Source: a virus. Taken from it: a stretch of 27,630 nucleotides of DNA. Of this stretch, positions 1 to 26,589 are shown piece by piece. The notes under the pieces were generated by a model that had not been told where the DNA came from, did no database searches, and saw only the letters and a list, made by a program, of their open reading frames with translations. How positions within the stretch are numbered: the first letter of the stretch is position 1; each line of letters opens with the position of its first letter. Position numbers and translations under genes: made by a program. The stretch lies in the UHGV virus genome UHGV-1949486. One strand, 5' to 3'.

Positions 1-336
1 TCAATCTCCCCCGGCTGAAACCGGAACCATCTCGCCAGCAGCCCCTGCGCCTGCGTCAGCGCCCTGGTTGCTCTCACCCATCCCCGTGATGAGCTGAAAT
101 CGTTTCTGTAACTGCAGGTAATCAGCCAGATCCATATTGTCGAGATCTTCCGGGAGAAGACCAGTACTGCGGGCAATCAGCGGTTCGTCCCAGTCTGCCG
201 GGTTTTTGCTGATTTTGCGCACCTGCTTCAGGTCTTTTACCGTCAGGCGTTTCAGTTCAACCAGCTCAATTCTGGTACCTGCAGCAGTGGTGAAGGGATA
301 AGACAATTTAAAAGTATCGGATGGGGTCTGTGACAT
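1..336 (-). CDS. Putative tail assembly chaperone (P2 gpE-like small acidic protein)
   Basis: 111-aa ORF with ATG at 336 and stop at 1-3; AGGAG Shine-Dalgarno 6-7 nt upstream; lies just downstream of the tail tube gene in the late operon; acidic C-terminus typical of tail chaperones. Confidence 0.45.
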   Translation of the reverse strand: MSQTPSDTFKLSYPFTTAAGTRIELVELKRLTVKDLKQVRKISKNPADWDEPLIARSTGLLPEDLDNMDLADYLQLQKRFQLITGMGESNQGADAGAGAAGEMVPVSAGGD

Positions 337-433
337 GATTGTGCTCCTGTGTAAGTTCAGGGCAGTATGTCGGGAGAAGCGCGTGACGGATATTAAAGGA
401 GATTAAGAAGAAGGGGCCGGAGCCCCTGTGATG

Positions 434-715
434 TCAGCAAGTGCGAAACCCCTTGCAGTTACGCAGGAAAGCGATGAGAAGCGTCTTTCCCTCAGATTTG
501 CCGATGCCGGAGAACCAGTGGTCGGGAGGCTCCCATGCTTCAATCAAATCCGCCAGTTTGCGGGCCTTTGAACGTGTGCAGTCAATCGGGTCATTGGTTT
601 TACGGGTATTAAAAAGGGTTTCCACCCCCGGAATATCAAGGAGGGTAAACCACGTACCATTTGACATGCCCAGTGCCGCACATCGTCCTCCTTTATCCGT
701 CAGTTCAACACTCAC
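434..715 (-). CDS. Hypothetical protein (late operon, between tail tube and chaperone-like gene)
   Basis: 93-aa ORF with GTG start 2 nt after the tube gene stop, GGGGG Shine-Dalgarno-like run upstream; no recognisable motif; could be spurious. Confidence 0.3.
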   Translation of the reverse strand: MSVELTDKGGRCAALGMSNGTWFTLLDIPGVETLFNTRKTNDPIDCTRSKARKLADLIEAWEPPDHWFSGIGKSEGKTLLIAFLRNCKGFRTC

Positions 716-717
716 CG

Positions 718-1239
718 TCAGCCCCCGATATTGATACGGTAGTCAGTCAGTTGATCAACACCGCCGACCCGGAAGATGTTGGCCAGATAGTCCAGTTGCA
801 GCAGCTCTTCACCATCCAGTACCTGTCTGATATACGTGCAGGTGAAGCTACTGGAGAACTCGGCGTTCTCGTGCTGTTTGAACGTCCCCAGCGGGTTCTT
901 CTTGAACATAATCGTCAGGAAGGTGACCAGCGGGATTTCGTCAATCAGCCCCTGCGAGCTGTAGCGCTGGACGCTGGAACGACACTGCAGTGCCAGCGAC
1001 CTGTACGGGTTCGCGGCAGACAGCATCGCATCGCGGTAAAAGCTGTTCCATTTGATTTCGCCTTCCAGTTTGTCAAAACCAGCCGGGAGTTCCACCTTAC
1101 CCACCATCCCCAGCGCCTTGTGTTCCTGCATAATCATGGAGACATCGGGGAGTTTAACTTCCTCAGCCCGTCCCAGCAGGTTAGTACCATCCAGATAGAT
1201 GTTGGCATTCGTGATGCGGTTTATCTCAATCTTTGACAT
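718..1239 (-). CDS. Tail tube protein (P2 FII / Mu M-like)
   Basis: 173 aa; begins directly after the sheath gene stop; N-terminal pattern (NANIYLDGTNLLG...EEVKLP) resembles contractile-tail tube proteins. Confidence 0.65.
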   Translation of the reverse strand: MSKIEINRITNANIYLDGTNLLGRAEEVKLPDVSMIMQEHKALGMVGKVELPAGFDKLEGEIKWNSFYRDAMLSAANPYRSLALQCRSSVQRYSSQGLIDEIPLVTFLTIMFKKNPLGTFKQHENAEFSSSFTCTYIRQVLDGEELLQLDYLANIFRVGGVDQLTDYRINIGG

Positions 1240-2666
1240 CAGTTGCCCCCTTTCAGGGTTAACAGGTATTCCGAGGTGATCTCAGTCTCAAACGTCAGTC
1301 GCTCCAGCGGCGGTGGTGGCGTATATTTGTAGCTCAGCAACAGGTGCCCGGCGGCCAGCTCCGTCTCCGGATTGCGGGCCGGATCAAACCAGCAACGGAA
1401 GCCCAGTACCGCACCATCACCAGTCATTTTGCGACCGTAGGCGTTGACCGACTCCGTCAGTGCATCAATCAGCGCCTGAGTAATCGGCATGTCGATGTAC
1501 TGCTGGCTGAAATAACGAATGGACTCGTTGATCACATCACCGGTGCGGCGAACGTTCTCAAAGTTACGCATATGGGTGACCGTTGGCCATGCTGCCGTCC
1601 GGTTACCCCACAGACGAAGGCCGCTGCCGTAACTGCTGAATACCGTGGTGATCCCCTGTTCGTTAAGCAGGTTCACCTCACTCTGCGGGTCATCAATCAT
1701 CGCGGACAGCTGGCGCTCCACGCCGGTGATCCCCAGAATCTCCTGATTGGAGGATGACCACCAGTAGCCCTTGTCCAGATCGACTCTGGCACGCAGACCT
1801 GCTGCACGCTGGCTGAGCGGCTCCAGACGCTCTGTGTTTGTCACCGGGTCATATACCTTCACATGCGGATAGCACAGACGGACGCGGTCGGAGCTGGTAT
1901 TGAAGTTGATGGTGCCTTCCGGGCCACGACCTGCCAGAGCCTGTGCAAAGGTGGTACCGACAGGCGCATCAATGTAGGTTACCGCGCCCAGCTTCTCTGC
2001 CATGGCGATAAGCTCAACTGCGACACTCTTCTGGGTGCAGAACACCGGCGCAATCAGAATTTTGGCGAAATAGCCGTACAGGTTGAAGCTGTCGTTAAGC
2101 AGCTTCATGCCGGTTCGGTTTCCGGCGCTGTTCACCCCGCCGATGATGTCCGCCGCAGTCACCTTCGACGGGTCCGCGTACTCATAGCTCACCTTCACGC
2201 TGCCACCGGCCTCAATAGCCTTGCCCAGGTTCGTGAGCACACCCGCCTGCGCATCAACACGGTAGTCCGTGTTCGCCGTGTGGGTGGTGCTGCCTTCACT
2301 GTTTTTCACCACCACATTAGCGACAACCGGATGCGCCAGTCTGGCCTGCCCTGTCGATTTGTCAAAGGTAACCACCTCATCCTCGATCGCCGTTTTATGT
2401 TTCGCCGGGTCGAGGACGTTAATGACCAGAACGGTGCCTGCACCATGGTCATAAATCGCATCCAGCGCCTGCGGAATGGTAAAGCCGGTGAACTGGCTGC
2501 CAAATGCCGCTGCGTCTTTCTCAGACAGGCACTGTACCAGCGTATTGACATCCCCCATCGGGGCGGTACCAATCAGGCCAATAACGGCAGATTTCACCGT
2601 TTTAACCGGGCGGGCACCGTTTTCCACCTCAATGGTTTCGGGACCATGCAGATAGTTAGCTGCCAT
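1239..2666 (-). CDS. Contractile tail sheath protein (Mu L / P2 FI-like)
   Basis: 475 aa, size and composition typical of myophage sheath proteins; positioned immediately upstream of the tube gene. Confidence 0.8.
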   Translation of the reverse strand: MAANYLHGPETIEVENGARPVKTVKSAVIGLIGTAPMGDVNTLVQCLSEKDAAAFGSQFTGFTIPQALDAIYDHGAGTVLVINVLDPAKHKTAIEDEVVTFDKSTGQARLAHPVVANVVVKNSEGSTTHTANTDYRVDAQAGVLTNLGKAIEAGGSVKVSYEYADPSKVTAADIIGGVNSAGNRTGMKLLNDSFNLYGYFAKILIAPVFCTQKSVAVELIAMAEKLGAVTYIDAPVGTTFAQALAGRGPEGTINFNTSSDRVRLCYPHVKVYDPVTNTERLEPLSQRAAGLRARVDLDKGYWWSSSNQEILGITGVERQLSAMIDDPQSEVNLLNEQGITTVFSSYGSGLRLWGNRTAAWPTVTHMRNFENVRRTGDVINESIRYFSQQYIDMPITQALIDALTESVNAYGRKMTGDGAVLGFRCWFDPARNPETELAAGHLLLSYKYTPPPPLERLTFETEITSEYLLTLKGGN

Positions 2667-2910
2667 GGGTGTCCTCCGTTTTCACTTCGCTGTCACTGCT
2701 GCTTCTGCGCTTTGGTGACTGCACAGCCGGTGTGCCGGCGGGTTTAGTCTCTTCAGGTACCGGCGTCAGATGTTTCAGCGCCACCAGTACCTTCACGTAG
2801 TCATGCTCCTCCGGCAGGGAAACCGTCTTCCCCGGCCAGAGCAGGATTTCGGTTCCGTCCGACAGCGTGACGCCGCTGGCCGGGCCGGAATAGCGGTATT
2901 CTTTCATCAC
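2656..2910 (-). CDS. Small hypothetical protein (Mu gp38 position)
   Basis: 84-aa ORF overlapping the sheath gene start by 11 bp; positional equivalent of the small gene preceding L in Mu. Confidence 0.4.
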   Translation of the reverse strand: MMKEYRYSGPASGVTLSDGTEILLWPGKTVSLPEEHDYVKVLVALKHLTPVPEETKPAGTPAVQSPKRRSSSDSEVKTEDTHGS

Positions 2911-3371
2911 TCGCTTTCCTCATAGTTCACTTCGGTTAACAGCGGGCCGGACGGTAAATCGCTGTCTTCGATAAAGACGCTTTCAGTCGCGAAGTCGAGG
3001 GCGTACTGCCACAGCCCCCTGACTTCACCGATAAACACCTCGCGGGTCAGCCAGATACGGCGGCGGCAGCCGGGCGGGGTGTGGCCACCGAGAATGCGGC
3101 GGACAGCATCCAGGACATTAATCGCCCCTTTTTTACCGTTGAGCTGGCGGAAGACCACCGTGACGCAGAGCTGGATAGTCTGAGACTGGATCACCGCACC
3201 GGTATCATCCGGCCTGTCAAAGCGCGAACCGGCATAGCTCAACAGCAACGCGCCAACCGGATGGTTCAGGCGATATTCAGCCGGTTTCTCCGGGAAGTAC
3301 TCCACCTGCAGTTGCGGCAGCTTCTCGCGTAACCGGGCCAGTACCGCATCAAGGACGGGCAGAACGTTCAT
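2907..3371 (-). CDS. Mu gp37-like protein (DUF1834 family, tail/neck associated)
   Basis: 154 aa; gene order and size match Mu gp37; start and stop overlap neighbours by 1-4 bp (translational coupling). Confidence 0.5.
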   Translation of the reverse strand: MNVLPVLDAVLARLREKLPQLQVEYFPEKPAEYRLNHPVGALLLSYAGSRFDRPDDTGAVIQSQTIQLCVTVVFRQLNGKKGAINVLDAVRRILGGHTPPGCRRRIWLTREVFIGEVRGLWQYALDFATESVFIEDSDLPSGPLLTEVNYEESE

Positions 3372-3817
3372 CAGTATTTCTCCAGTAAACCGTCACGACC
3401 GCCGAAAGTGGCCGGGCGACTGCGTACACGAAACTCGCCAGGCTCAGGCACATCTTTCTGAGTGGACGGCAGCCCCAGCGTGAGCCTGTTATCACGTAAC
3501 TCCCTGAGTTGCCGCAGCGCTTCTTTGTGGTCATCCTTCACCGTATCCGGGAGGTCACCTTCCGGGCGGCGGGCGTAGAGCCGGTAACGGACCAGCGTGA
3601 TGGCAATGTCCCGCAGAACAGTCGGTATCTCTGCCAGTGGCAGGATATAGCGTCCGCGCAGATGGGCATCAATCAGCTCGTCGGCATAGCGGATACAGCT
3701 GTCCACCACACGGGTATTCACTGTTGCAGGCGAGTCGAAGTCCATCTCTTCACTGGTGAGTTCGATAAGCGTCCGCTCCGGCACCTGCGCAAGCAAATCC
3801 TCCAGGGTGCAGTACAT
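3371..3817 (-). CDS. Mu gp36-like protein (DUF1320 family)
   Basis: Long ORF 3371-3979 trimmed to the ATG at 3817 (MYCTLEDLL...), which lies 1 nt after the upstream gene stop; size of about 148 aa matches the gp36 family. Confidence 0.5.
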   Translation of the reverse strand: MYCTLEDLLAQVPERTLIELTSEEMDFDSPATVNTRVVDSCIRYADELIDAHLRGRYILPLAEIPTVLRDIAITLVRYRLYARRPEGDLPDTVKDDHKEALRQLRELRDNRLTLGLPSTQKDVPEPGEFRVRSRPATFGGRDGLLEKY

Positions 3818-3818
3818 G

Positions 3819-4157
3819 TCACACCCCGCGCAGGATACGAATGACGTCGCCTTCACCCCCGGCTTCATCAAGTGCAATACCACAGGATTTACCGTCGCCG
3901 GACTGCGGCACGGCTCTGGCCTGAGCATCTGACTGAACAGCCACACCACGGCTGACAGCGGCCCCGGCCTCGACAGCAATAATGCCCAGAACGCTCACCG
4001 GCGTGCTGTCGCCGGTAACAGCATCCACTTCGGCAACCCCGAGCGCTGCGGCACCGGCTTTACAGGGGGTATTATCTGCCCCGACAAAACGCTGCTGTGT
4101 CAGTGCGGCCCCTGCCGTTACGGTTGTGATCAGAATGACCTGCTGAGTGGTTCCCAT
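3819..4157 (-). CDS. Hypothetical Ala/Gly-rich head-region protein (Mu gp35 position)
   Basis: 112-aa ORF directly downstream of the major capsid gene; no specific motif recognised. Confidence 0.4.
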   Translation of the reverse strand: MGTTQQVILITTVTAGAALTQQRFVGADNTPCKAGAAALGVAEVDAVTGDSTPVSVLGIIAVEAGAAVSRGVAVQSDAQARAVPQSGDGKSCGIALDEAGGEGDVIRILRGV

Positions 4158-4166
4158 AACGCCTCC

Positions 4167-5120
4167 TTATTTACTGATACCGGTGATGAGATACCCGGCA
4201 TCGCCACCAACCACGGCGACTTTGTAGATATCGGTATAACGGCAGTACTTCACCTTGCCACCGGCTCCGTCGTATTTGTCAGCAACAGGCATCCCCTTAC
4301 GACGCAGGGTGTAGCCGAAGGACGGCTCGTTCTCGTCCGCGCTGTCCGCCCCGGGCTGCGGTTTGCCGACATAGTGCAGCATCAGGTTGTCTCCCCAGAT
4401 ATCCGCCGGCACGCTGTCCTTATCCATTGCCGCTTTCATGGACGGCAGGGAGACAGGCGCACCGATGACGATCTCTTCGATCTGAAAGAGGTCCTGCAGG
4501 ATTTCTGTGGTGATGCGCTTGCGTTCGTTGGCTCCGATGGCAGCCTGAAGTGCCGGATGGAACTTCAGCAGCGCCATCACGCCGGCACCCATGGTCATCA
4601 GGTTAGGACGCAGCCCCGTGGCCGTACGGACCGCTTCCATACCGGCTTCAATCACCCCGATGGGGTCCCCCTTACCACCGGCCCAGCGATCACTGGCTGT
4701 CAGTTTTTTAACGTGCCCGGTACGGTAGACCTTTTGATCCTGAGCCAGACGGGCGGCGATAAGTTCACGGCGCAGGTTCACGCCATTCGTGGCGCGACGG
4801 ATGGCCTTGCTCTCTTCGTTAAACATGGACTCCGCCTGTTCGCGGTAATCCACCGGTGCTGCCAGATCGTGTTCACCCAGCACCAGATCCAGTGTGCCGG
4901 TTTTCTCACGGACCAGAACATTGCTGTCCGCCCCGACGGCACGCTCAGTGTCATATTCCACAAAGGCGGTTTTCCCGAAGGTCGGCACACGCACGCCTTC
5001 CTTGTCCGTCAGCACGACGGGGAAAATACGTTCGCCAATGAATGCGGCATTTTTATAGCCTCGGGCGATACTGGTCAGTACCGGATCAACGACACGTTTA
5101 CCTTTTAAGTAATCAGACAT
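4167..5120 (-). CDS. Major capsid protein (Mu gpT-like major head subunit)
   Basis: 317 aa, downstream of the I-like gene and upstream of gp36/gp37-like genes, as in Mu. Confidence 0.7.
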   Translation of the reverse strand: MSDYLKGKRVVDPVLTSIARGYKNAAFIGERIFPVVLTDKEGVRVPTFGKTAFVEYDTERAVGADSNVLVREKTGTLDLVLGEHDLAAPVDYREQAESMFNEESKAIRRATNGVNLRRELIAARLAQDQKVYRTGHVKKLTASDRWAGGKGDPIGVIEAGMEAVRTATGLRPNLMTMGAGVMALLKFHPALQAAIGANERKRITTEILQDLFQIEEIVIGAPVSLPSMKAAMDKDSVPADIWGDNLMLHYVGKPQPGADSADENEPSFGYTLRRKGMPVADKYDGAGGKVKYCRYTDIYKVAVVGGDAGYLITGISK

Positions 5121-5134
5121 GATTTCTCCTTAAA

Positions 5135-6250
5135 TTACAGGCAGCGTGCGACAGCAGCCTCATAGCTGATGCCTTCTTTTTTGGACAGGGCCACTGCTTT
5201 CTGATGCAGGGCCAGACGCTCAGGATCGGCTTCCGCAAACTCCGCCACATCCACCTTCACCGTGTCGCCGACACGCTCCTTTGTGGCCTGTTCGGCGAAA
5301 TTCATCACCGGCTCCCCGTCGGAGAGCAATGAACGGAAGGCGGTGGCCAGCGGCGTGCGGCTTTCCCCCTCAGCAAACTCCACCGGCTTGTCGCCACCGG
5401 CGACGGCATCCAGCAGGGCAACCACCACGGAGGAGGCGCGGGGAGCCAGACGCCCCTCTGCGACCAGTTTTTCTGCAAAGGCCACATTGTCCTTATGCAG
5501 TTGCTCCTGTCTGGCCTGTGCATCACGCGCATCGCGATCAGCAGCCTGCTGCTTCAGGCGGCGGTTCTCCTCCTGAAGGGCTTCAATCTCTTCTTTTGTC
5601 ATCGATGATTCCTCGTTACTTGCGGAAGACGGCACCTGGCCTGTCTCACTGAATTGTGCACCTGCTGCATCCTGCGACGGTGCGTCGCGGTACGCCTCTT
5701 CGCGCAGATTGTTGAGCTGCCATTCCGGCAGGACTTTTTCTGCTTCGTCCAGACTGAAGCGGGCGATCAGAAAATCGCGCAGCTTTCCCCACAGGGAGGC
5801 ATTCGTGATGGCCTGCCAGTCGGCGAACTCCACCACACCTTCTTCCTGCTCACTGAAGGACACCTGTTTCAGCCCCTTGACGGAAGGTGGCTGTGCCCCG
5901 AGAAAGCCCACATGGCGCAGGTAGAGCACGCCGGGCTTCGGATTGGACGGTGAATCCGGGAGGTAGAAAGAGGCGGACACTTTTTTGAATCGTCCGTTGG
6001 TGACCATCTCAGCAAACTGCGGGTCCAGCTGGGCAGGCTCTGCCATCAGATCGACGCCGCTGAGCGACAGGGCTTTCACCCAGCCCCACGCCGGGTCTTC
6101 CGTTCTGGGATGACCAATCACGAGTGGTGCTTCATGGACGGACGGGTCATAGGCTTTCACGCAGGCGGCAAGATCGTCTGGCGTGAACGGCAGTTTTTTG
6201 CCGTGCATATCGGTATGAGTACCGGCTTTAAAAATGTGAATGGCTGACAT
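5135..6250 (-). CDS. Head maturation protease / scaffold protein (Mu gpI-like)
   Basis: 371 aa; C-terminal charged coiled-coil-like segment (EEIEALQEENRRLKQQAADRDARDAQARQEQL) as in scaffold domains; Mu-order position between G and T. Confidence 0.6.
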   Translation of the reverse strand: MSAIHIFKAGTHTDMHGKKLPFTPDDLAACVKAYDPSVHEAPLVIGHPRTEDPAWGWVKALSLSGVDLMAEPAQLDPQFAEMVTNGRFKKVSASFYLPDSPSNPKPGVLYLRHVGFLGAQPPSVKGLKQVSFSEQEEGVVEFADWQAITNASLWGKLRDFLIARFSLDEAEKVLPEWQLNNLREEAYRDAPSQDAAGAQFSETGQVPSSASNEESSMTKEEIEALQEENRRLKQQAADRDARDAQARQEQLHKDNVAFAEKLVAEGRLAPRASSVVVALLDAVAGGDKPVEFAEGESRTPLATAFRSLLSDGEPVMNFAEQATKERVGDTVKVDVAEFAEADPERLALHQKAVALSKKEGISYEAAVARCL

Positions 6251-6464
6251 TTTGCTGTCCCGCGTTATGTTGTCGGAGACAGTTTGTGAGAAATGCAGGC
6301 CCGGCGATTTTAATCTGCTTTAGAAAACATCAGGGGAGAAGGACAGGGAAAGCAATGCGGTGAACCGGAAGCGGTTATAAAACAGAGGCTGTAAAGCCTT
6401 TATAAAGGTAATACAGCCCCTCATTCGCTGGCAATGATAAATCACCCGCCTGAAGAGAGAAAAC

Positions 6465-6923
6465 TCAGCGACGGGCCGCTGATTCAAGATGGCGGACAAT
6501 GGTATCGAGGATGGGGATTACCACTTCAGGCTGTAGTTCTCCATCCCCCGTCACCGGCAGGAACGGGCGGGCCGGAAGTTCAACAGACTCATTACGCCCC
6601 GTTTTACCCCCGAACTGGTGAATGGTACCGTAAACAACGTTGGTCCCCACAACAGCCTGCCGGTCGTCATGGTCGGTTGATACTGACCCCATCAGACGCC
6701 CGGTATCCTGCAGTGTCTGCCCGTCACGTTCTTCCGCTGCCAGCGAGGGCATCCACCCCGGACGCCCCTCATCAAGAAAGTTAAACTGTGTTTCCGCCAG
6801 CAGGGTTCCGGCGATTTTGCGCATCGCGGGCTCCAGGTCTGTGGCAGCCAGATCCAGCGCACGGAGGCTCCGGCGCAGGGATTTATCGTTAATGGTGATA
6901 CTGACCAGGTTATCGGAAGCCAT
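6465..6923 (-). CDS. Virion morphogenesis protein (Mu gpG-like)
   Basis: 152 aa; position after the F-like gene; sequence pattern resembles the phage virion morphogenesis family. Confidence 0.6.
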   Translation of the reverse strand: MASDNLVSITINDKSLRRSLRALDLAATDLEPAMRKIAGTLLAETQFNFLDEGRPGWMPSLAAEERDGQTLQDTGRLMGSVSTDHDDRQAVVGTNVVYGTIHQFGGKTGRNESVELPARPFLPVTGDGELQPEVVIPILDTIVRHLESAARR

Positions 6924-6925
6924 TG

Positions 6926-17150: not shown

Positions 17151-17166
17151 TTGAACATATCTCAAT

Positions 17167-17238: not shown

Positions 17239-17463
17239 ATGAACAAACAACAAGTTCGGGCACGGCTGGTTGAACGAGGCAGTAGCTTGCGCCAGTTCGC
17301 GCTTAACGCGGGCTATGAACCACGAACAGTCACCCAGGCAGTCAGTCGCTGGGCTGGTAAAAGTGAACTACCTCGCGGTCGTTTGACTTATCGGATTTTG
17401 CGAGATCTATCGGTTGCAATAGGTAAAGAAGTTACCCCCGGTATCCTTAAGGAGGCGTCATGA
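17239..17463 (+). CDS. ner: Ner-like DNA-binding protein (Mu Ner / Nlp family)
   Basis: Similarity to Mu Ner core (SLRQFALNAGYEPRTVTQAVSRW); first early gene; ATG at 17239 preferred over GTG at 17233 on AGGA spacing. Confidence 0.7.
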   Translation: MNKQQVRARLVERGSSLRQFALNAGYEPRTVTQAVSRWAGKSELPRGRLTYRILRDLSVAIGKEVTPGILKEAS

Positions 17464-17768
17464 ATAAACCAAATACATCAAGCTCAGGTATCCGTATTTT
17501 GCGCGTTCTTAAGGCCTTACGTGGCCACGCTTTGAACGGTGTTTCTAACGGGGAACTAGCGGTTGCACTGCACGAATCACCGGCAAACATCAACCGGGCA
17601 CTTAACACGCTCATTGAAGAAGGGTTGGCTCTGAAACTAGAAAACGGGCGTTTCGCACCAGGCATCCAGTTGCTGCAGATCGCCATGGCCCACAGTAACG
17701 AGATGGCACGTGCACAGGATCGCATTAACGAAATCAACCAACGTGTTATTTCAGGTAGTCGTTTGTAA
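17460..17768 (+). CDS. Putative winged-helix DNA-binding protein (hypothetical early protein)
   Basis: 102 aa; AAGGAGG Shine-Dalgarno; ATGA overlap with ner stop; HTH-like segment NGVSNGELAVALHESPANINRALNTLIEEGL. Confidence 0.5.
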   Translation: MNKPNTSSSGIRILRVLKALRGHALNGVSNGELAVALHESPANINRALNTLIEEGLALKLENGRFAPGIQLLQIAMAHSNEMARAQDRINEINQRVISGSRL

Positions 17769-17778
17769 GGAGTAATCA

Positions 17779-18690: not shown

Positions 18691-18693
18691 CCA

Positions 18694-20463
18694 ATGAATG
18701 CTGCCCTGACTGAACGACTGGTTTATGTCGCCCGCGCGGCACGTGACGCGGGGCATGGTAAACGCGGTGCAATATACGACGCTGCCTGTGCTGAACTTGG
18801 CATGTCCCGCGCCACTCTGCTGCGCAGGCTGAAGGAGGTCTCTGTGACTGATAAACGCAAAAAACGCGCCGATGCCGGGCGCAGCGCCCTGACCCGCGAC
18901 GAAGCCGCGCTGATATCTGCCACACTGCGTGAGGCCACCCGCAAGAACGGTAAGCGTCTCTATTCCATCGCAGATGCAGTGGAAACCCTGCGGGCTAACG
19001 GCTTTATCTCCGCAGGCAGAACAGATGAAACCACCGGTGAGTTTTTCCCGTTGTCCGAAGATGCCATCAGCCGTGCCCTGCGTAACTATGGCCTGCACCC
19101 GGAACAACTGGATGCCCCTGCGCCGCATACCGAAGTGGCCAGTCTGCATCCCAATCACGTCTGGCAGATTGATGCCTCGCTCTGCACGCTTTACTACCTG
19201 AGCAATGGACACAAAGGGCTGCAGGTGATGGACAGCGCGAAATTCTACAAGAACAAGCCCGCTAACCTTGCCCGTATCGCCAGTGACCGCGTGTGGAGTT
19301 ATGAGATTACCGACCATGCCAGCGGCTGGATTTACGTTGAGTATGTGACGGGTGCGGAATCCGGTGAGAACCTGTGTTCTGTGCTTATCAACGCCATGCA
19401 GGAGCGTGGCGGCGCAGACGTGCTGCACGGCGTGCCAAAAATACTCTATCTCGACCCCGGCTCGGCAAACACCGCGGGTATGACGAAAAACATGTGCCGC
19501 TCACTGGGCATTGACCTGATAGCGCACAAGCCGCATAACGCCCGCGCCACCGGACAGGTGGAAAAGGCGCGGGACATTATCGAACGCAAGCTGGAGCCGG
19601 GTCTGAAGTTCCGGCCGGTTCACAGTCTGGAAGAACTCAACGCGCTGGCCGCGAAATGGCGCAGCCACTTTAACGCCACGGCTGTTCACAGCCGCCACGG
19701 TAAAACCCGCACGGATATCTGGCTGAAGATTACTGCTGAGCAGCTGAAAAAAGCGCCTTCCGTTGAGGTATGTCGTGAACTGGCTGTGGCGGCACCAGAA
19801 CTCCGCAAAGTCACGCCAAAACTTCGTGTCTCGTTCCGGGGCACTGAATTTGACGTATCAACGGTACCGGGCGTACTGGTTGGTGAAAAACTGATGATTA
19901 CCCGTAACCCATGGCGCAGCGATGTGGCACAGGTGGTTCTGACCGGTGAGGACGGCCACGAGACGTTCTTCCTGGTCGAAGAGGTCAGAAAGAACGAGTT
20001 TGGCTTTGCTGAAGGCGCGGCGGTATTTGGCGAAAGTTACAAAGCCCTGCCGGAAACCCCGGCACAGATGGCGGCAAAAGAAACTGAAGCGCTGGTTACC
20101 GGTACAGACAACGCCGCAGATGCAGCCGCCGCACGCAAGGCGAAGGCGCTGCCGTTCGGCGGGCGGGCTGACCCGCATAAACATAACCACGAAACACTGC
20201 TGCCGGCCTATATGCCGAAGCGTGGTCAGGCCTCTGACGTACGCGGGCCGCGCACTGAACAACGTCCCATGACTCATGTGGAGGCCGCGAAAGCCCTGCG
20301 CGATAAGTTCAGCGCCGACGGCCTTACCTGGACGCCGGAACATTACCGCCAGTTAACGGCACAGTACCCGGACGGCGTACCGGAAGCCGCACTGGATGAA
20401 GTCATGGCCACGCTGACCACACCGGCCAGCAGCAGTGTTATCAGCATAGTTAACGGCAACTGA
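18694..20463 (+). CDS. DDE transposase (Mu A-like / retroviral-integrase-fold catalytic core)
   Basis: 589 aa; candidate catalytic triad blocks HVWQIDAS, ILYLDPGSANT and ATGQVEKARD in the order and spacing of Mu A D-D-E residues; followed by an ATPase gene. Confidence 0.85.
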   Translation: MNAALTERLVYVARAARDAGHGKRGAIYDAACAELGMSRATLLRRLKEVSVTDKRKKRADAGRSALTRDEAALISATLREATRKNGKRLYSIADAVETLRANGFISAGRTDETTGEFFPLSEDAISRALRNYGLHPEQLDAPAPHTEVASLHPNHVWQIDASLCTLYYLSNGHKGLQVMDSAKFYKNKPANLARIASDRVWSYEITDHASGWIYVEYVTGAESGENLCSVLINAMQERGGADVLHGVPKILYLDPGSANTAGMTKNMCRSLGIDLIAHKPHNARATGQVEKARDIIERKLEPGLKFRPVHSLEELNALAAKWRSHFNATAVHSRHGKTRTDIWLKITAEQLKKAPSVEVCRELAVAAPELRKVTPKLRVSFRGTEFDVSTVPGVLVGEKLMITRNPWRSDVAQVVLTGEDGHETFFLVEEVRKNEFGFAEGAAVFGESYKALPETPAQMAAKETEALVTGTDNAADAAAARKAKALPFGGRADPHKHNHETLLPAYMPKRGQASDVRGPRTEQRPMTHVEAAKALRDKFSADGLTWTPEHYRQLTAQYPDGVPEAALDEVMATLTTPASSSVISIVNGN

Positions 20464-20473
20464 GGAGGGAAAC

Positions 20474-21640
20474 ATGCTGGTACTGAAGCAGCAACTGAAA
20501 GAGGCCCGTATTCCACAGGCGGTGGTGGCGAGAGCTGTCGATGTTTCTGAGGCCACGCTGGCCCAGATTGTGAATCATAACGCGTGGCCCCGCACCAGCC
20601 CCGGAGAAGTGCGCCGGCGTCTTGCGTCCTGGCTGGAAAGTCAGGGGATTGATACAACGAAGAGTTTTGATGCTGTACAGGGCGCGGCCACGCCCCGTAC
20701 AGCGGGTACCACAGATAAAACGAGCCTCAGTGAGGAAGAGAATATGTTACTCAAAAAACAGGTGTTATTTCCAGCAACCAAAAAAGCGTTTGGTCTTTTC
20801 CGTGACCCGTTCGCCGACGAAGCCATGCAGGGTTCTGATGATGTGTTCACCACCCCGGATATTCGCTACGTGCGTGAGGCGTTGTACCAGACAGCCCGTC
20901 ATGGTGGGTTTATGGCCGTCATCGGTGAGTCCGGTGCGGGTAAATCCACGCTGCGCCGCGACCTGACTGAACGTATCAACCGCGAGAATGCGCCGGTAAT
21001 TGTTATCGAGCCATACATCATCGCTATGGAAGACAACGATGTGAAAGGGAAAACCCTGAAGGCAGCAGCGATTGCCGAAGCCATTATCAGTACCATCGCA
21101 CCACTGGAAAGCATCAGACGCAGTCAGGACGCCCGCTTTCGCCAGTTGCATCGCGTCCTGAAAGACAGCAGCCAGGCGGGGTTCAGCCACGTTCTGGTGA
21201 TTGAGGAGGCCCACAGTCTGCCCATTCCGACACTGAAACACCTCAAACGCTTTTTTGAGCTGGAGTCCGGTTTCAAAAAACTGCTGTCCATCGTGCTGAT
21301 TGGCCAGCCGGAACTGGCGACAAAACTGTCTGAACGCAATATGGAAGTCCGTGAAGTCGTTCAGCGCTGTGAGGTGGTCGAACTTCTGCCTCTGGACAAT
21401 AACCTTGAAGAGTTTCTGACGTTCAAACTGCAACGGGCCGGTAAACAACTGACGGACATTATGGACGCCAGCGCAGTGGATGCCATACGTGCCCGCCTGA
21501 GCAATCCGGGAAGTCATCGTAAAAATATGGTCAGCCTGCTGTATCCGCTGGCCGTCAGTAACCTGGTAATAGCCGCCATGAATCTGGCCGCTGAAATCGG
21601 GGTTCCACAGGTCAACGCTGACGTTGTCAAAGGGGTTTAA
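20474..21640 (+). CDS. Transposition ATPase (Mu B / TniB-like AAA+ protein)
   Basis: 388 aa; Walker A GESGAGKST and Walker B-like HVLVIEEAHSL; N-terminal HTH-like segment; immediately downstream of the transposase. Confidence 0.8.
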   Translation: MLVLKQQLKEARIPQAVVARAVDVSEATLAQIVNHNAWPRTSPGEVRRRLASWLESQGIDTTKSFDAVQGAATPRTAGTTDKTSLSEEENMLLKKQVLFPATKKAFGLFRDPFADEAMQGSDDVFTTPDIRYVREALYQTARHGGFMAVIGESGAGKSTLRRDLTERINRENAPVIVIEPYIIAMEDNDVKGKTLKAAAIAEAIISTIAPLESIRRSQDARFRQLHRVLKDSSQAGFSHVLVIEEAHSLPIPTLKHLKRFFELESGFKKLLSIVLIGQPELATKLSERNMEVREVVQRCEVVELLPLDNNLEEFLTFKLQRAGKQLTDIMDASAVDAIRARLSNPGSHRKNMVSLLYPLAVSNLVIAAMNLAAEIGVPQVNADVVKGV

Positions 21641-21642
21641 TA

Positions 21643-21912
21643 ATGAAATCCACCACAGGTATCAACCAGCAAATCAGCAAAGTGCAGTCAGCCATTATGG
21701 CGCTTAAGGCGACGAACACGGATGTACAAAGCATCACCATCAGGGGTAACAAACCTGTCATCCGCGTTTCCCGGAGTGCGCATTGCATGCGCATGCTTGA
21801 GCAGGGAAAGGCCTGTTATCTGTATACCGGTCATGACCACAGGGGACATTTCCGTCAGGGCGTTTTCGAACTGCACGGCTGTCGCGTCGTGTGGCCGGAA
21901 TCTTTGTGGTAA
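21643..21912 (+). CDS. Hypothetical early protein (89 aa)
   Basis: ORF starting 3 nt after the ATPase gene stop; no motif recognised. Confidence 0.4.
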   Translation: MKSTTGINQQISKVQSAIMALKATNTDVQSITIRGNKPVIRVSRSAHCMRMLEQGKACYLYTGHDHRGHFRQGVFELHGCRVVWPESLW

Positions 21913-21939
21913 TCAGCACAACAGGAGGAGTCATAAAAT

Positions 21940-22470
21940 ATGGCAAAAAGTACAAAAGGGGCAAAACGTATCAAAGCCGCAGCAGCACTCTGGGTGCCGG
22001 GGACACGCGAAGAGGTCATTGAGGGAATCAGACTGCTTGGTGACGCGCAACGTGAACTGGTCAGGGCTGAAACAGAAATGAATGACACCATTGGCGACAT
22101 CACTGCACGTTATGCCCCGCTCACCGAGAGCCTGAAAAAACGCATGGCCGAACTGCAGTCCGGTATCCAGACATGGTGTGAGGCGCACCGTGATGAACTG
22201 ACCGGCAACGGGAAGGTGAAGTTCGCTAACCTCACCACCGGCGAGGTGCAGTGGCGAAACCGTCCGCCGTCAGTCAGCATTCGCGGGGCGGATAATGTTA
22301 TTGAATTACTGAGACGTCTGGGGCTTGAGCGCTTTATTCGTGTAAAGGAGGAAATAAATAAAGATGCCATTCTGAATGAAAAAGAGGCTGTGAAAAATAT
22401 TCCCGGTATTACCATAAAAAGTGATATTGAGGATTTTTCAATAATTCCTTTTGAGCAGGATGTGCAGTAA
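21940..22470 (+). CDS. gam: Gam-like host-nuclease inhibitor (Mu Gam family, DNA-end binding)
   Basis: 176 aa; strong similarity to Mu Gam as recalled (KRIKAAAA..., ETEMNDTI, WCEAHRDELT, VKFANLTTGEVQWRNRPPSVSIRG, FIRVKEEINKDAIL, GITIKSDIEDFSIIPFEQ); AGGAGG Shine-Dalgarno. Confidence 0.85.
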   Translation: MAKSTKGAKRIKAAAALWVPGTREEVIEGIRLLGDAQRELVRAETEMNDTIGDITARYAPLTESLKKRMAELQSGIQTWCEAHRDELTGNGKVKFANLTTGEVQWRNRPPSVSIRGADNVIELLRRLGLERFIRVKEEINKDAILNEKEAVKNIPGITIKSDIEDFSIIPFEQDVQ

Positions 22471-22567
22471 ACACACCACGTTAATTATTTAATAAAAACA
22501 TTTTCTTTTTTATTCCGGCGTCAGCGCCGCGGGCTTCTGCACGCCGGAAACAGAGGAGAATTAAATT

Positions 22568-22762
22568 ATGATATTTAAATGTATTCAGTGCGAGAGGGAT
22601 ATAACAGCCCTGCGTTTTCACAGCGCCATCGCCGTGATGTCCGGTAAGTATCACATACCTGCAGTACGTGTCACCCTGGTCTGCCCGTACTGCAGCCAGC
22701 ATTTTTCGGCGGACGTGCCCGTCATAGAATTCTCCCGCCCTGACAGGGAGGACGCGCAATGA
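22568..22762 (+). CDS. Small putative zinc-ribbon protein (two CxxC pairs)
   Basis: 64 aa; KCIQC and VCPYC motifs; GAGGAG Shine-Dalgarno. Confidence 0.45.
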   Translation: MIFKCIQCERDITALRFHSAIAVMSGKYHIPAVRVTLVCPYCSQHFSADVPVIEFSRPDREDAQ

Positions 22763-23031
22763 TTACCCCACAGGAAGCACGACAGCGCACCCGAACTCTT
22801 GTTGAACACTATGTCAACGAGTGTGAATGCCGCGACCTCACCGATGTGAAGCACGTCCTGACGGCGCTAATCAGCATGGCCACACAGGCCATTGTGGCGA
22901 CCAACGGAAAGGAGGCTGCCCTGCAGGTACTGATGAACACACTCACCCACACGGCAGAGCATGAGGTGCCGTACCGGATGGAAACCACTGCAGAAGGCGG
23001 CCTGCACATCACCGTCAGCCGGAAGCACTGA
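22759..23031 (+). CDS. Hypothetical early protein (90 aa)
   Basis: GGGAGG Shine-Dalgarno; 4-bp overlap with the upstream gene. Confidence 0.45.
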   Translation: MITPQEARQRTRTLVEHYVNECECRDLTDVKHVLTALISMATQAIVATNGKEAALQVLMNTLTHTAEHEVPYRMETTAEGGLHITVSRKH

Positions 23032-23040
23032 GGGCGCGGC

Positions 23041-23337
23041 ATGACACGAAACACCGAACTCACCCGCACCGCCCTCTACCGTCTGGCCCTGCAGCGTTTC
23101 GGGCCGGACGCACAGGCCCTGAAACTGACAGAAGAGGCCGCTGAACTGGCGGCCAGTGCTGCCCGCAATCTGAACGGACAGGGCAGCGAAAGTGACCTCG
23201 CGGCAGAGCTGGCAGACGTGGAAATCATGACAGAGCAACTGCGCCTTCAGGGGATGGACCGGCTGATTGACTTCCACAAACAGAAAAAACTGGAACGTCT
23301 GGCTGCACGACTGGGCGTGATTTACACGAACGAGTAA
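23041..23337 (+). CDS. Putative MazG-like nucleotide pyrophosphohydrolase domain protein
   Basis: 98 aa; paired acidic helices with EEAAELA and ELADVEIM motifs characteristic of the small MazG/NTP-PPase fold (assignment by motif only). Confidence 0.45.
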   Translation: MTRNTELTRTALYRLALQRFGPDAQALKLTEEAAELAASAARNLNGQGSESDLAAELADVEIMTEQLRLQGMDRLIDFHKQKKLERLAARLGVIYTNE

Positions 23338-23351
23338 CCGGGAGGCATTCA

Positions 23352-23567
23352 ATGGCTGACATACTCAGGGAAATCACCGCATGGACACTGATTCTTACTG
23401 GCCTGGCGACATGCCTCAGTGCGGGGGCAGCCCTGGCTGCCCTGCTGATGCACATAACAACACAGTGGTTATGGGAAAAGCTTAAAGCAGCATACAGCCT
23501 GAAAGAGCTGTCCGACGCTGTCCGGGCATGGAAACGGCAGAAAAATACCGGAGATACAGAACAATGA
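23352..23567 (+). CDS. Small hypothetical membrane protein
   Basis: 71 aa with one hydrophobic helix (AWTLILTGLATCLSAGAALAALLM); GGGAGG Shine-Dalgarno. Confidence 0.4.
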   Translation: MADILREITAWTLILTGLATCLSAGAALAALLMHITTQWLWEKLKAAYSLKELSDAVRAWKRQKNTGDTEQ

Positions 23568-24247
23568 CAGACCAGAATAAACACATTGAGAAACTGAAAA
23601 AGTTGCTGGCGCTGGCCGCATCCGGCAACCCGCACGAGGCCGCTCTGGCACTGCGCCGAGCCCGTAAACTGATGGATGTTCACGGCATCACACATTCCGA
23701 CATTGCTATGAGTGATATTGATGAAACCATCAGTCATTACTGGCCGACAGGCAGTCTCCGTCCACCGCGCTACATGCTGGGCCTGATGAACATCATCCGC
23801 GAGGCATTTGGTGTTAACTCCATCATTCACCCCGGCACGCATCCGTCTGTGGGGTTCTACGGTAACCGGGAACGAGCGGCACTGGCTGCGTACACCTGGG
23901 AAGTGCTGGTCCGCCAGCTGAAAAAGGCGCGTCAGCAGTATATCAGCGCACAGAACAAAAGAATAAAAAACGCCACCCGTACCAGCCGTGGAGACCAGTT
24001 TGCTGAAGGCTGGGTACTGGCCGTTATCAGTGAAATACAGTCCTTTGCCCTGACCGATGATGAGCGTGAACTGATGCAACAGTGGCTGGAACATAAATAC
24101 CCGCAGACGCAAACCACCAGGGCGCGTAAACCGGGAAGAAGCCGCAATGGCGACGCCTCGCGCTATGCGGGGTTTCGTGAAGGGCAGAACGTCAGACTGC
24201 ACCGCCCGGTCAGTGGGCAGGAACAACAGAAACTGGAGGCCAGATGA
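23564..24247 (+). CDS. Hypothetical protein with DUF2786-like N-terminal domain
   Basis: Start placed at ATG 23564 (GGAGA Shine-Dalgarno 11 nt upstream) rather than the ORF-track start 23528; N-terminus IEKLKKLLALAASGNPHEAALALRRARKLMDVHGI is the characteristic DUF2786 pattern. Confidence 0.5.
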   Translation: MTDQNKHIEKLKKLLALAASGNPHEAALALRRARKLMDVHGITHSDIAMSDIDETISHYWPTGSLRPPRYMLGLMNIIREAFGVNSIIHPGTHPSVGFYGNRERAALAAYTWEVLVRQLKKARQQYISAQNKRIKNATRTSRGDQFAEGWVLAVISEIQSFALTDDERELMQQWLEHKYPQTQTTRARKPGRSRNGDASRYAGFREGQNVRLHRPVSGQEQQKLEAR

Positions 24248-24474
24248 TTACGCTATCAGGTAACAGCCGGAAATTAAAAGCCTGCCGAATATCTGCCAGA
24301 TACCTTTTTGCCCGCGCCTTTTTTAAGAACGTCAGGCCGGGGATCACAATTGGTGTTATTGCCGGACGCGAACAGGTTGAAAAATACATGTCAGGTGCAT
24401 GGTGGAATAACGACCCTGTCATTGCTGCCCGTAATATTCATATCGAATGGGGAGGTATTCAGAATGACTACTGA
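24244..24474 (+). CDS. Hypothetical early protein (76 aa)
   Basis: GGAGG Shine-Dalgarno; ATGA overlap with the upstream gene. Confidence 0.4.
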   Translation: MITLSGNSRKLKACRISARYLFARAFFKNVRPGITIGVIAGREQVEKYMSGAWWNNDPVIAARNIHIEWGGIQNDY

Positions 24475-24670
24475 AACCATTGTCTGTTTTCTTTTCTGGT
24501 ATATGTACGCAGGATCATGCAGCGCAAGACTTCATCGTTCCCTGGGCTATGGCAGGCACTACGACACCGCGCATTACATCCTGTACATGACCGCCGTCAT
24601 GTTGTTCTGGCCAGTCACCCTGCCAGCTGCAACCGACATTGTTGCCGACAGACTGAAAAAAAGGAGATGA
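24464..24670 (+). CDS. Small hypothetical membrane protein (68 aa)
   Basis: Internal ATG at 24464 of ORF 24308-24670, with GGAGG 8 nt upstream; two hydrophobic helices. Confidence 0.4.
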   Translation: MTTETIVCFLFWYMYAGSCSARLHRSLGYGRHYDTAHYILYMTAVMLFWPVTLPAATDIVADRLKKRR

Positions 24671-24671
24671 T

Positions 24672-25121
24672 ATGCAGAAAAAACGCCTGATACAGCTTAT
24701 CCATATTGCCCGTAATGAACTGGGTATGGATGAAGACACCTACCGCCAGATGTTACAGGGGCTGACCGGTAAAGCCTCAACCAAAGGAATGGATACCACA
24801 CAACTAAACTGCGTGCTGGAATCCATGAAAAAGAAAGGCTTTCGCGTTAAACCAGCCAGAAAAGCCAGCTCCGGTTTACCGCTGGATAACCATCCGCAGT
24901 CCAGGAAAATTCGTGCGCTATGGCTTGAAATGGCTGCTGCCGGCATTGTTCGTGACCGTTCAGAAAATGCATTAGCGCGGTGGATCAAGCGGGAAACGGG
25001 CATCAGCGCCCTGCGCTGGCTCAATACTGAACAGGCAAGCAGTGTTATTGAGAAACTGAAGAAGTGGCAGCACAGAGCTGCGGGAGTAAAACATGAGCGA
25101 CCTGAATCAGTTTCGAAGTAA
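24672..25121 (+). CDS. gemA: GemA-like regulatory protein (Mu gp16 / DUF1018 family)
   Basis: 149 aa; N-terminal LIQLIHIARNELGMDEDTYRQMLQGLTGKAS...KKGF pattern typical of Mu GemA; located just upstream of mor as in Mu. Confidence 0.7.
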   Translation: MQKKRLIQLIHIARNELGMDEDTYRQMLQGLTGKASTKGMDTTQLNCVLESMKKKGFRVKPARKASSGLPLDNHPQSRKIRALWLEMAAAGIVRDRSENALARWIKRETGISALRWLNTEQASSVIEKLKKWQHRAAGVKHERPESVSK

Positions 25122-25491
25122 AGGGCCGGAACTCCTGGTGGAGCTGGCACAGCATACCTCTGAGACCGTTCGCGAGATTATTGATATTGAGCCCGCAATT
25201 GCCGACCAGATTGGTCAGGCCGTCGCGAACCGAATGATGCAGGTCTGGGGCGGGCAAAACGTTTATTTCCCGATGGGCATGGTATGGAAGGTCAGTCAGC
25301 GCGACCGGGAAATCTTCAGGGAGTTTAACGGACGCAACCACCACGAACTGGCCCGCAAGTTTGGTGTTTCGCTTCAGTGGGTCTACAGCGTGGTTAAGCG
25401 GGTCAGAAAAGAAGAACTGGATCGGATGCAGGGCAGGTTGTTTGATGAAGATCTGCCAGAGGAGACGAAAGACGTTAACAAATCCAGATAA
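25093..25491 (+). CDS. mor: Mor/C-family transcriptional activator (Mu Mor-like)
   Basis: 132 aa; C-terminal blocks GGQNVYFP and FREFNGRNHHELARKFGVSLQWVYSVVKRVR match the Mor/C family HTH region; last gene of the early operon. Confidence 0.8.
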   Translation: MSDLNQFRSKGPELLVELAQHTSETVREIIDIEPAIADQIGQAVANRMMQVWGGQNVYFPMGMVWKVSQRDREIFREFNGRNHHELARKFGVSLQWVYSVVKRVRKEELDRMQGRLFDEDLPEETKDVNKSR

Positions 25492-25535
25492 TTCCTGCTT
25501 GTTAAAGTCCTTTCAAAAATCTCCTTATTGTATAA

Positions 25536-25567
25536 AAGCACGGTAGACCCCTTACCGTGCTTTTTTT
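25536..25567 (+). terminator. Rho-independent terminator closing the early operon
   Basis: Perfect 10-bp stem AAGCACGGTA / TACCGTGCTT with 7-nt loop, followed by a run of seven T; 45 nt after the mor stop. Confidence 0.75.
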
Positions 25568-25605
25568 ATGCTCTCTCTTTAGTATTCAGGATGCAGGGAG
25601 AAAAT

Positions 25606-26238
25606 ATGTTTGACGTTTCGTTGTTAAATCTGCCATGGGCAACACTGGTGACCCTGACCAGTGGCTATATTGGGTATTTTATTGCGAATGTGGGACTGAA
25701 GGATCACCACAAGCCCATTGAGGTGACTTTTTCTTCGCTGATTTTTGGCCTGACAGCAATGATGGCTTACCAGGCTGTTATGTGGGCAGGTCTGAATGCC
25801 TGGCTGGCAACACCACCAGCACTTCTGTGTGCCGTTACATGCGGTGCGTGGTGGCGCAGGTACGGTCGCAAATGGATGTACAGATTACTGTGGAATAATG
25901 ATGTTTCATGGTCTGACGATACCAGCTCAGCATGGCAGGCAATGTTTGATCAAACAGGCTTCAGCGTTACCGAGGTCAGAGTGATTCTTCGCGATGGTTC
26001 CGGTATGATGTCACGGCTGCCAGGGAACTTTGAAGAGTGGCCTAACGGTCCGTTTACCCTGGGGAATAAAGGCGATATGGTTCTTTACGTCACGCACAGC
26101 AGCCCTTCAGGCAGTAACGAATGGGAAGAGTATAAAGGCGTGGTTGATAAGTACTGGGGAGCTCTGGCAACCTATATTCCAGCAGATCAGATTGCCAGAG
26201 TGGAGATCAGGCGCGTTCGTGCAACGAACGATGAATGA
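25606..26238 (+). CDS. Membrane protein of unknown function; terminal moron-like accessory gene
   Basis: Start moved to ATG 25606 (GGGAG Shine-Dalgarno) because the ORF-track start 25528 would translate through the terminator hairpin; about 210 aa with two to three N-terminal hydrophobic helices and a soluble C-terminal domain; lies between the terminator and the prophage end. Confidence 0.55.
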   Translation: MFDVSLLNLPWATLVTLTSGYIGYFIANVGLKDHHKPIEVTFSSLIFGLTAMMAYQAVMWAGLNAWLATPPALLCAVTCGAWWRRYGRKWMYRLLWNNDVSWSDDTSSAWQAMFDQTGFSVTEVRVILRDGSGMMSRLPGNFEEWPNGPFTLGNKGDMVLYVTHSSPSGSNEWEEYKGVVDKYWGALATYIPADQIARVEIRRVRATNDE

Positions 26239-26556
26239 TGTTTATTTTTTCCCTGGGGCAGGGGCTGCCGGCATAGTGGTTTTATTGGCAGAGGAAGACG
26301 ATTCTCCTTTTCTACCGGAATCGCGCTCGAACGTCACGATGTGCTTGCTTTTGGGCTTTTCTGAGTAATCCAGGCTATCATGCTTATTGTTTTGAGTAGT
26401 CATTGGAATCATCCTTTTTGTTGCGGGTCATGTTTCAGCAAACTCGATTCTAAGTTGCCAGGAAGGATGATTTCAATGCCCGACTTATCTATCGTATAGC
26501 GGAAAAGAATTTCAGTTCTGTTCACCAGAACCCATGTTAACCCACTCCAATTCGTT

Positions 26557-26589
26557 ATTTATCTCACGGATCCCCCTTCATTTATCTCA
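26557..26589 (-). repeat. Prophage terminus: two direct copies of a 10-bp motif (TGAGATAAAT on the minus strand) 23 bp apart; candidate transposase-binding end sites; element ends in CA at 26589
   Basis: ATTTATCTCA read at 26557-26566 and 26580-26589; from the end inward the sequence begins 5-prime TG like Mu ends; the host-like permease frame continues from 26590. Confidence 0.5.

Follow-up and report, generated by a model that had tools for sequence, protein, structure and literature searches.

Whether a phage whose early and late genes diverge is a rearranged Mu, a mosaic or something else is the question raised by UHGV virus genome UHGV-1949486, a stretch of 27,630 nucleotides that we analysed at its full length (hereafter the window). 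A reading made earlier from the letters alone (the sequence-only reading) had taken it for a transposable prophage with early and late arms on opposite strands, laid out like BcepMu rather than like Mu, with early proteins that look Mu-like and therefore possibly a mosaic. We are nearly certain that positions 1-26599 belong to a transposable myovirus prophage of Escherichia coli, ~38 kb long and of the BcepMu type (Bcepmuvirus-like), that has transposed into ybiR, and that they form its right-hand 26.6 kb; 70% of the prophage lies inside the window. Divergent arms are normal in the BcepMu family and do not reflect a rearrangement of Mu. The gene map was built from a listing of open reading frames (ORFs) and from Pfam scans, with extra profiles from PHROG, NCBIfam and TIGR00571. 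In this map all genes of the window are intact ORFs, a tRNA scan of the window found no genes, and the early arm lies on the plus strand and the late arm on the minus strand, in agreement with the divergence noted earlier.

The layout is best appreciated against the annotations of the two reference phages. In BcepMu (NC_005882), genes 1-16 occupy one strand up to the genome end (including mor, gemA, the ATPase gp08, the transposase gp09, gp10 and the helix-turn-helix (HTH) protein gp16), and the opposite strand carries the repressor gp17, the lysis genes, TerS, TerL, portal, F, G, protease/scaffold, capsid, gp36, gp37 and a P2-type sheath and tube. The gene order and strands of the window are the exact mirror image of this annotation. 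In Mu (NC_000929), by contrast, everything right of c is on one strand. We compared the 41 window proteins by tblastn with BcepMu, Mu, PhiKM and KP12 (for Mu, with a cutoff of E<=1e-3). BcepMu was matched by 25 of the 41, in strictly monotonic order, and Mu by 7 (G, F, portal, TerL, Gam, GemA and Mor), which upholds the assignment of the layout to the BcepMu type. The identities that separate the two phages were as follows.

Transposase: 68% to BcepMu (gp09), no match in Mu
ATPase: 59% to BcepMu (gp08), no match in Mu
Sheath: 76% to BcepMu, no match in Mu
Tube: 67% to BcepMu, no match in Mu
Portal: 60% to BcepMu, 27% to Mu
F: 59% to BcepMu, 46% to Mu
G: 44% to BcepMu, 28% to Mu
Mor: 56% to BcepMu, 31% to Mu
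GemA: 43% to BcepMu, 36% to Mu
TerL: 24% to BcepMu, 27% to Mu
Gam: not in BcepMu or KP12, 62% to Mu

The prophage ends on the right at 26599 (...TGTCTGATCA), as host sequence belonging to ybiR begins at 26600; the end had previously been set at 26589, and similarity to the host moves it 10 bp further. The remainder of the window (26600-27630, plus strand) is 100% identical to the intact ybiR of E. coli PBP8 from gene nucleotide 89. This anion transporter gene is hence split at codon 30 by the insertion, and the CitMHS Pfam match in the host part starts at profile position 49. For this copy the predicted target-site duplication is CCTTTG (26600-26605). The terminus itself has the following structure.

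26556-26599, minus strand: right terminus, inward reading TGATCAGACATGAGATAAATG...GAGATAAATA, with a terminal TG/CA dinucleotide

Two 10-bp repeats of the form G[A/C]GATAAAT[G/A] occupy nucleotides 12-21 and 35-44 of this end. The motif has 2 sites in the whole window, both at the right terminus, against 0.13 expected, and these repeats are candidate transposase binding sites. No second terminus-like sequence and no internal end motif was found within the window, which is consistent with the earlier statement that it holds a single end. With the last 200 bp of the element (26400-26599), E. coli plasmids also gave matches at 105 places, and the identity of 140 records was between 80 and 90%; these plasmid matches hint at related ends, or fragments of them, carried on plasmids.

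Complete copies elsewhere supply the other end and the evidence for transposition. The copy in E. coli N61 is 99.9% identical to window positions 1-26599, with 24 mismatches and 3 gaps. There the complete prophage measures 38,007 bp, starts with TGATGCGCCGCGCGATAAATG and ends with ...TGATCA; it splits a cysteine hydrolase gene and is flanked by a direct repeat of GCTATC. Both ends were also resolved for two further copies: that of M-17 lies between rstA and rstB, flanked by repeats of GCTGGT, and that of FAM21845 lies within a gene for a reverse transcriptase, flanked by repeats of CCTTCA. The target duplication is thus 6 bp in all three resolved copies, the ends of which are TG...CA, and in all three a single pair of ends encloses both arms. 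In other genomes the genes adjoining the termini are diverse; among them are gspL, mdfA, irp1, ssuB, a gene of the yehR family and one for an alanine racemase. The small number of differences between the window and a copy at another locus implies recent movement. Pfam scans of the window genes found no integrase family, and no att repeats were found in the window. Site-specific integration was rejected on both counts, the diverse sites with 6-bp duplications and the lack of an integrase in the window, and the claim that this is a transposable prophage stands.

Measured against N61, the left 11.4 kb that the window lacks would hold the tape measure, a P2-like baseplate, tail fibres and a Gin-like invertase; this part is known only from N61, where baseplate genes are annotated as P2-like. 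At the N61 left end (L004:5096-8465), a 'recombinase family protein' of ~190 aa lies beside tail-fibre and assembly genes in opposite orientations, an arrangement that resembles the invertible G segment of Mu. We considered this recombinase as an integrase and rejected it, its size and position being those of a Gin/Hin-type invertase. The left-end 200 bp of N61 also match 14 places on E. coli plasmids of ~92.5 kb.

The element is already known: inversion of the early region has been published as characteristic of the BcepMu family, and phages and prophages nearly identical to this one have been deposited; it is a common type of E. coli prophage with a sequenced, isolated representative. Summer et al. 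are said to have described in 2004 the left-end region of BcepMu as inverted relative to Mu, and the BcepMu transposases as a distinct lineage. By megablast, Escherichia phage PhiKM (PQ738613), filed by NCBI under Bcepmuvirus, is 96.7% identical over 80% of the query, and two relatives stand at ~85% DNA identity, one of them Klebsiella phage KP12 clone 2 (OM835952). The early region was detected in 642 (about one in eight) of the 5,426 complete E. coli genomes, with up to 3 copies in each. Prophages of the Bcepmuvirus type have been listed in surveys of E. coli and of gut isolates (10.1101/2022.05.07.487787; PMC12629997). As for rank, the element belongs to the BcepMu-like group but probably not to the genus Bcepmuvirus in the strict sense. 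The ICTV yardstick for a genus is ~70% nucleotide similarity genome-wide, BcepMu falls short of it, and megablast of 25 kb of the window against the phage collection matched neither BcepMu nor phiE255.

How the two arms came to lie in one prophage could be explained otherwise. That BcepMu-like late genes and layout were joined to an early arm derived from Mu was the mosaic envisaged by the sequence-only reading, and it can point to Gam, which matches Mu Gam and has no counterpart in BcepMu or KP12, to the weak Mu matches of GemA and Mor, and to the fact that modules have been exchanged in this element (TerL/TerS and the immunity region). Yet the transposase and the ATPase, the core of transposition, match gp09 and gp08 of BcepMu and nothing in Mu. 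A protein search with the transposase against 50,697 phage records matched 69, all of them BcepMu-like phages or transposable phages of Pseudomonas and Burkholderia; Mu is not among them, and the only Escherichia phages are PhiKM and Phi06_2974 B. By Pfam, this protein contains an rve core and no Mu-specific transposase domains, with a sub-threshold match to IS481. GemA, Mor, the winged HTH (wHTH) protein and the DUF3102 protein are closer to BcepMu or matched there only, and the ends of the element are of the BcepMu and not of the Mu type. We therefore rejected a Mu-derived early arm: the transposition core is BcepMu-type and Gam alone is Mu-like, which makes such a mosaic very unlikely and does not sustain the general description of the early proteins as Mu-like. 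What the element does show elsewhere is ordinary phage mosaicism, affecting the terminases, the repressor with the first early gene, the cargo that lies between holin and repressor, and the accessory gene that follows mor. It is next to inconceivable, in turn, that the window joins two independent neighbours, a late-gene remnant of P2/Mu-like kind and a separate transposable element bearing the early genes, as the opposite strands of the arms and the low-GC insert between them might suggest. This reading is ruled out because the complete copies bracket both arms with a single pair of ends, at three loci and with one 6-bp duplication each. Furthermore, PhiKM, an isolated phage genome, holds both arms, BcepMu, which forms plaques, has the same layout (PMC2920897), and the window shows one terminus with no internal end motif. 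The possibility raised earlier that the late genes belong to a separate adjacent element is thereby answered.

More room is left for a defective, fixed remnant that neither transposes nor forms particles, given that the left third of the element falls outside the window and that this copy is known from its sequence alone; it is nevertheless improbable, as the genes of the window are all intact ORFs, as its 26.6 kb and a copy at another locus differ by only 24 substitutions and 3 gaps, and as the closely related PhiKM was deposited as a phage record. Several points do weigh against placing the window with a BcepMu-type prophage. Protein identities to BcepMu range from 24 to 76%, and strict membership of Bcepmuvirus is uncertain although NCBI files PhiKM there. 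The left end and target duplication of this copy lie beyond the window and are taken over from N61, and the regulatory cascade, the assignment of binding sites and headful packaging are inferred. Lastly, the BcepMu prophage of B. cenocepacia NCTC13227 has no flanking direct repeat (AGCATG versus AATTGG; L012:6179, L015:2926), and the 6-bp duplication is consequently documented only for the E. coli clade. When the BcepMu end consensus was scanned over the genome contigs, 13 other matches appeared, mostly single and in unrelated metagenome-assembled genomes. Nothing that we found contradicts the classification of the element as BcepMu-type.

The early arm (17233-25491, plus strand) shows colinear tblastn matches to BcepMu gp12, gp10, gp09, gp08, gp02 and gp01. 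Its genes, and the features that follow them up to the terminus, are given below.

17233/17239-17463, plus strand: small HTH protein in the position of Ner
17460-17768, plus strand: wHTH protein
17779-18690, plus strand: DUF3102 protein
18694-20463, plus strand: rve/DDE transposase (Pfam rve, PHROG 310)
20474-21640, plus strand: ExeA-like AAA ATPase (Pfam AAA_22, PHROG 296 transposition protein)
21940-22470, plus strand: Gam
Between Gam and GemA, plus strand: several small ORFs and a DUF2786/DUF7168 protein
24672-25121, plus strand: GemA
25093-25491, plus strand: Mor
25534-25574, plus strand: strong terminator-like hairpin directly after mor, a 13-bp stem and then a T run
25606-26238, plus strand: right-end accessory gene (210 aa, PHROG 12870, no assigned function)

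The first of these had been called ner, a name that holds for its position only: its match to HTH_35 (E=0.004) is below cutoff and tblastn found no match to Mu Ner. Similarly, the early genes had been said to run on the plus strand to the end of the element. The strand is right, and a variable accessory stretch of 1.1 kb (25492-26599) separates mor from the terminus. The 25606-26238 gene within it varies among relatives, being absent from FAM21845, PhiKM, KP12 and BcepMu. The whole stretch between mor and terminus is only ~160 bp long in FAM21845 and holds a different gene in PhiKM; in N61 and M-17, a small ORF is annotated on the minus strand at the position that corresponds to window ~26242-26403. 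Within gam, a stretch of 100 bp is 84% identical at the DNA level to the gam gene of Pseudomonas phage H72.

The late arm (1-13482, minus strand), the left part of which is cut by the start of the window, yields colinear tblastn matches to BcepMu gp21-gp41 at 31-76% identity; over 1-9287, its DNA is 98.5% identical to that of PhiKM.

1-336, minus strand: tail assembly chaperone
718-1239, minus strand: tube, P2-type (P2 FI/FII Pfam families)
1239-2666, minus strand: sheath, P2-type (P2 FI/FII Pfam families)
2907-3371, minus strand: Gp37 (Pfam)
3371-3979, minus strand: Mu Gp36 (Pfam)
3819-4157, minus strand: cement/DUF2190 protein (Pfam)
4167-5120, minus strand: major capsid protein, not of the Mu T type by Pfam
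5135-6250, minus strand: protease/scaffold (PHROG 976)
6251-6464, minus strand: non-coding gap of 214 bp between G and protease, ~47% along the genome
6465-6923, minus strand: G
6926-7774, minus strand: F
7728-9224, minus strand: Mu-type portal
9224-10540, minus strand: TerL
10537-11091, minus strand: Mu Gp27-like small terminase (TerS)
11088-13482, minus strand: lysis cassette (holin, SLT endolysin, spanin and membrane proteins)
11088-12474, minus strand: spanin and membrane proteins
12356-13096, minus strand: SLT endolysin
13099-13449/13482, minus strand: holin

The order of these genes is that of Mu and the strand is minus, as had been proposed; that agreement does not extend to the sheath and tube, which are P2-type, nor to the capsid. 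The terminase pair at 9224-11091 (TerL and the Gp27-like TerS) is a swapped module: TerL is ~25% and TerS ~48% identical to the counterparts in PhiKM, KP12 and BcepMu, whereas the flanks are more than 95% identical to PhiKM. The nearest phage TerL proteins are those of Pasteurella phage AFS-2018a (66%) and of marine Mu-like siphophages.

Alignment and motif search showed that two motifs of the gap between G and protease, TTTATAAAGGCTTTAC (6391-6406) and TAAAGCAGATTAAAA (6308-6322), are kept in BcepMu (L005:18648-18849), despite the ~50% divergence of the proteins of the two elements. A related string, TAA.GC.G.TTAAAATC, is found 53-67 bp upstream of the holin ATG (13502-13516). From their position, the gap motifs and the string upstream of holin are candidate late promoters. 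The gap may also be the positional counterpart of the G-I gap of Mu, where a strong gyrase site (annotated in the Mu record) and the late promoter P_I are found at the matching position.

Between the two arms lies a region that the sequence-only reading had left out of its description, with 3 kb of low-GC cargo (13697-16672) followed by a cI-like repressor.

13697-14467, plus strand: Dam-family N6-adenine DNA methyltransferase (MethyltransfD12 7e-28; TIGR00571 116.9 bits against a cutoff of 114.85)
14457-16672, minus strand: low-GC gene pair (GC 40-44% against ~58% elsewhere)
14457-15662, minus strand: 401-aa protein, its N-terminal domain acidic and its C-terminal part transmembrane
15665-16672, minus strand: YejK/NA37-like nucleoid-associated protein (NAP), 335 aa (NA37 1e-80)
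16743-17150, minus strand: cI/Cro-type HTH repressor (HTH_3 6e-12, Phage_CI_repr 2.5e-6)
17167-17194, plus strand: candidate early promoter TTGACA-16-TACAAT, matching the consensus at 11 of 12 positions; its spacer contains the dyad ACACAC...GTGTGT

A region of 88 bp separates the repressor gene from the divergently oriented early operon. The repressor probably starts with the ATG at 17150, which gives 135 aa; its mechanical ORF reaches 17246, and the N61 repressor is called as 408 nt in RefSeq. This protein is 80% identical to that of KP12 and 22% to that of PhiKM, and the first early HTH gene, also part of the immunity region (16743-17463), is 100% identical to KP12 and has no counterpart in PhiKM. 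This comparison indicates that the immunity region has been swapped and is of the KP12 rather than the PhiKM type. Closely related E. coli prophages of the BcepMu-like group are probably hetero-immune, which may explain the presence of up to 3 copies per genome.

The Dam protein is 88-92% identical to that of PhiKM and KP12. The low-GC pair, on the other hand, has no counterpart in PhiKM, KP12 or BcepMu by tblastn. It occurs in 19 of the 5,426 complete E. coli genomes, always beside the prophage Dam gene. The 401-aa protein has a net charge of -11 over residues 1-260 and transmembrane segments at 262-311 and 356-378. The NCBIfam scores of the pair for DS1_1 (1.4e-17, 64 bits) and DS1_2 (3e-21, 76 bits) mark the two proteins as distantly related to those of the DS-1 anti-phage system but are far below the cutoffs of 330 and 315, and there is a weak match to KwaA. 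The PANGU type II system has been described as a NAP sensor with an effector in which an acidic DNA-mimic domain is combined with a transmembrane domain at the C-terminus, and one such system comes from uropathogenic E. coli (preprint 10.64898/2026.04.06.716658). Compared by description, the two-gene architecture of the low-GC pair is alike, with DS-1 family scores that stay under the cutoffs, and this makes the pair a candidate for anti-phage defence of the kind of PANGU type II / DS-1. A bolder proposal, towards which we lean less than away from it, is that the slot between holin and repressor is a defence hotspot and the pair a divergent, prophage-borne subtype of NAP-sensor abortive infection (PANGU type II / DS-1) that is spread by transposition. 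If this were true, the low-GC pair would shield the lysogen from phages that break down the chromosome of the host.

From this anatomy, from what is established for Mu and BcepMu, and from the 6-bp duplications observed in relatives, a mechanism can be proposed. The early promoter at 17167-17194 would be closed in the lysogen by the cI-like repressor (16743-17150, minus strand). Upon induction, the rightward early operon would yield the DDE/rve transposase and its AAA+ partner, then Gam, which would protect DNA ends, and last the Mor-family activator. The transposase would bind the paired 10-bp repeats at each end and cut at the terminal CA, and copies would be joined with a 6-bp stagger, that is, by replicative transposition. 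Mor would then turn on the leftward late operons from upstream of holin (~13500), and probably again in the gap between G and protease (6251-6464). These operons would cover lysis, terminase, the Mu-like head and the P2-like tail, and genomes would be packaged by the headful together with flanking host DNA.

For discovery these results carry little weight, and their practical value is for annotation: the proper label is BcepMu-like, not Mu-like, transposable prophage, and ybiR is disrupted in the host strain. What looks like an active transposable phage is present in ~12% of complete E. coli genomes and would be a source of insertional mutations and a carrier of variable cargo, comprising Dam, the candidate NAP-based defence pair and accessory genes at the end.

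Comparison with known systems places the element beside BcepMu. Both have a Tn552-like rve transposase, an ExeA-like ATPase, Mor as the last gene of the early arm, a cI-like repressor between the arms, a lysis cassette with an SLT endolysin, Mu-like head genes and a P2-like sheath and tube. The right end of the window and the left end of N61 resemble both ends of BcepMu in the TGA tip, in repeats at nucleotides 12-21 and 35-44 and in a largely shared sequence. TG...CA ends and a Tn552-like rve transposase have been described for BcepMu-family prophages (PMC2628397). Likewise, the family is reported to cluster its genes in the order regulation/replication, lysis, head and tail, with 23-bp terminal repeats and packaged host DNA, and BcepMu itself forms plaques; virion DNA with heterogeneous host flanks was reported for both BcepMu and its family member phiE255 (PMC2920897). 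Family relatives (SalMu, PhotoMu and ChromoMu) occur in Salmonella Typhi, Photorhabdus and Chromobacterium (PMC3417384). The element differs from BcepMu in its E. coli host, in carrying Gam, Dam, the pair of NAP and membrane protein and the right-end accessory gene, in a TerL of another lineage and in lacking the acyltransferase of BcepMu. At the left end, complete relatives of the window element also have an invertible tail-fibre region with a Gin-like invertase, whereas BcepMu was reported to be without them (PMC2628397).

With Mu, the element shares the transposable lifestyle, TG...CA termini, the late order from lysis to tube, the Gin-type invertase found in complete relatives and, by Pfam, the Gp27, portal, F, G, Gp36, Gp37, Gam, GemA and Mor families. 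Unlike Mu, its early arm is inverted, its transposase and ATPase have no detectable similarity to MuA and MuB, the window has one gene of the Mor/C family against two (Mor and C) in Mu, and it has a P2-type tail and an endolysin of the SLT kind. The target duplication is 5 bp in Mu, an established figure, and 6 bp in the E. coli copies. On its gene content the element would not be counted in Muvirus, having no pair of the MuA/MuB type and arms that are not colinear. Among its closest relatives, it departs from PhiKM in the terminase genes, the immunity region, the cargo between holin and repressor and the right-end accessory gene, and is essentially identical to the N61 prophage except for the insertion site. 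PhiKM, KP12 clone 2 and the prophages of N61, M-17, FAM21845 and KE50 all have the same architecture as the window element.

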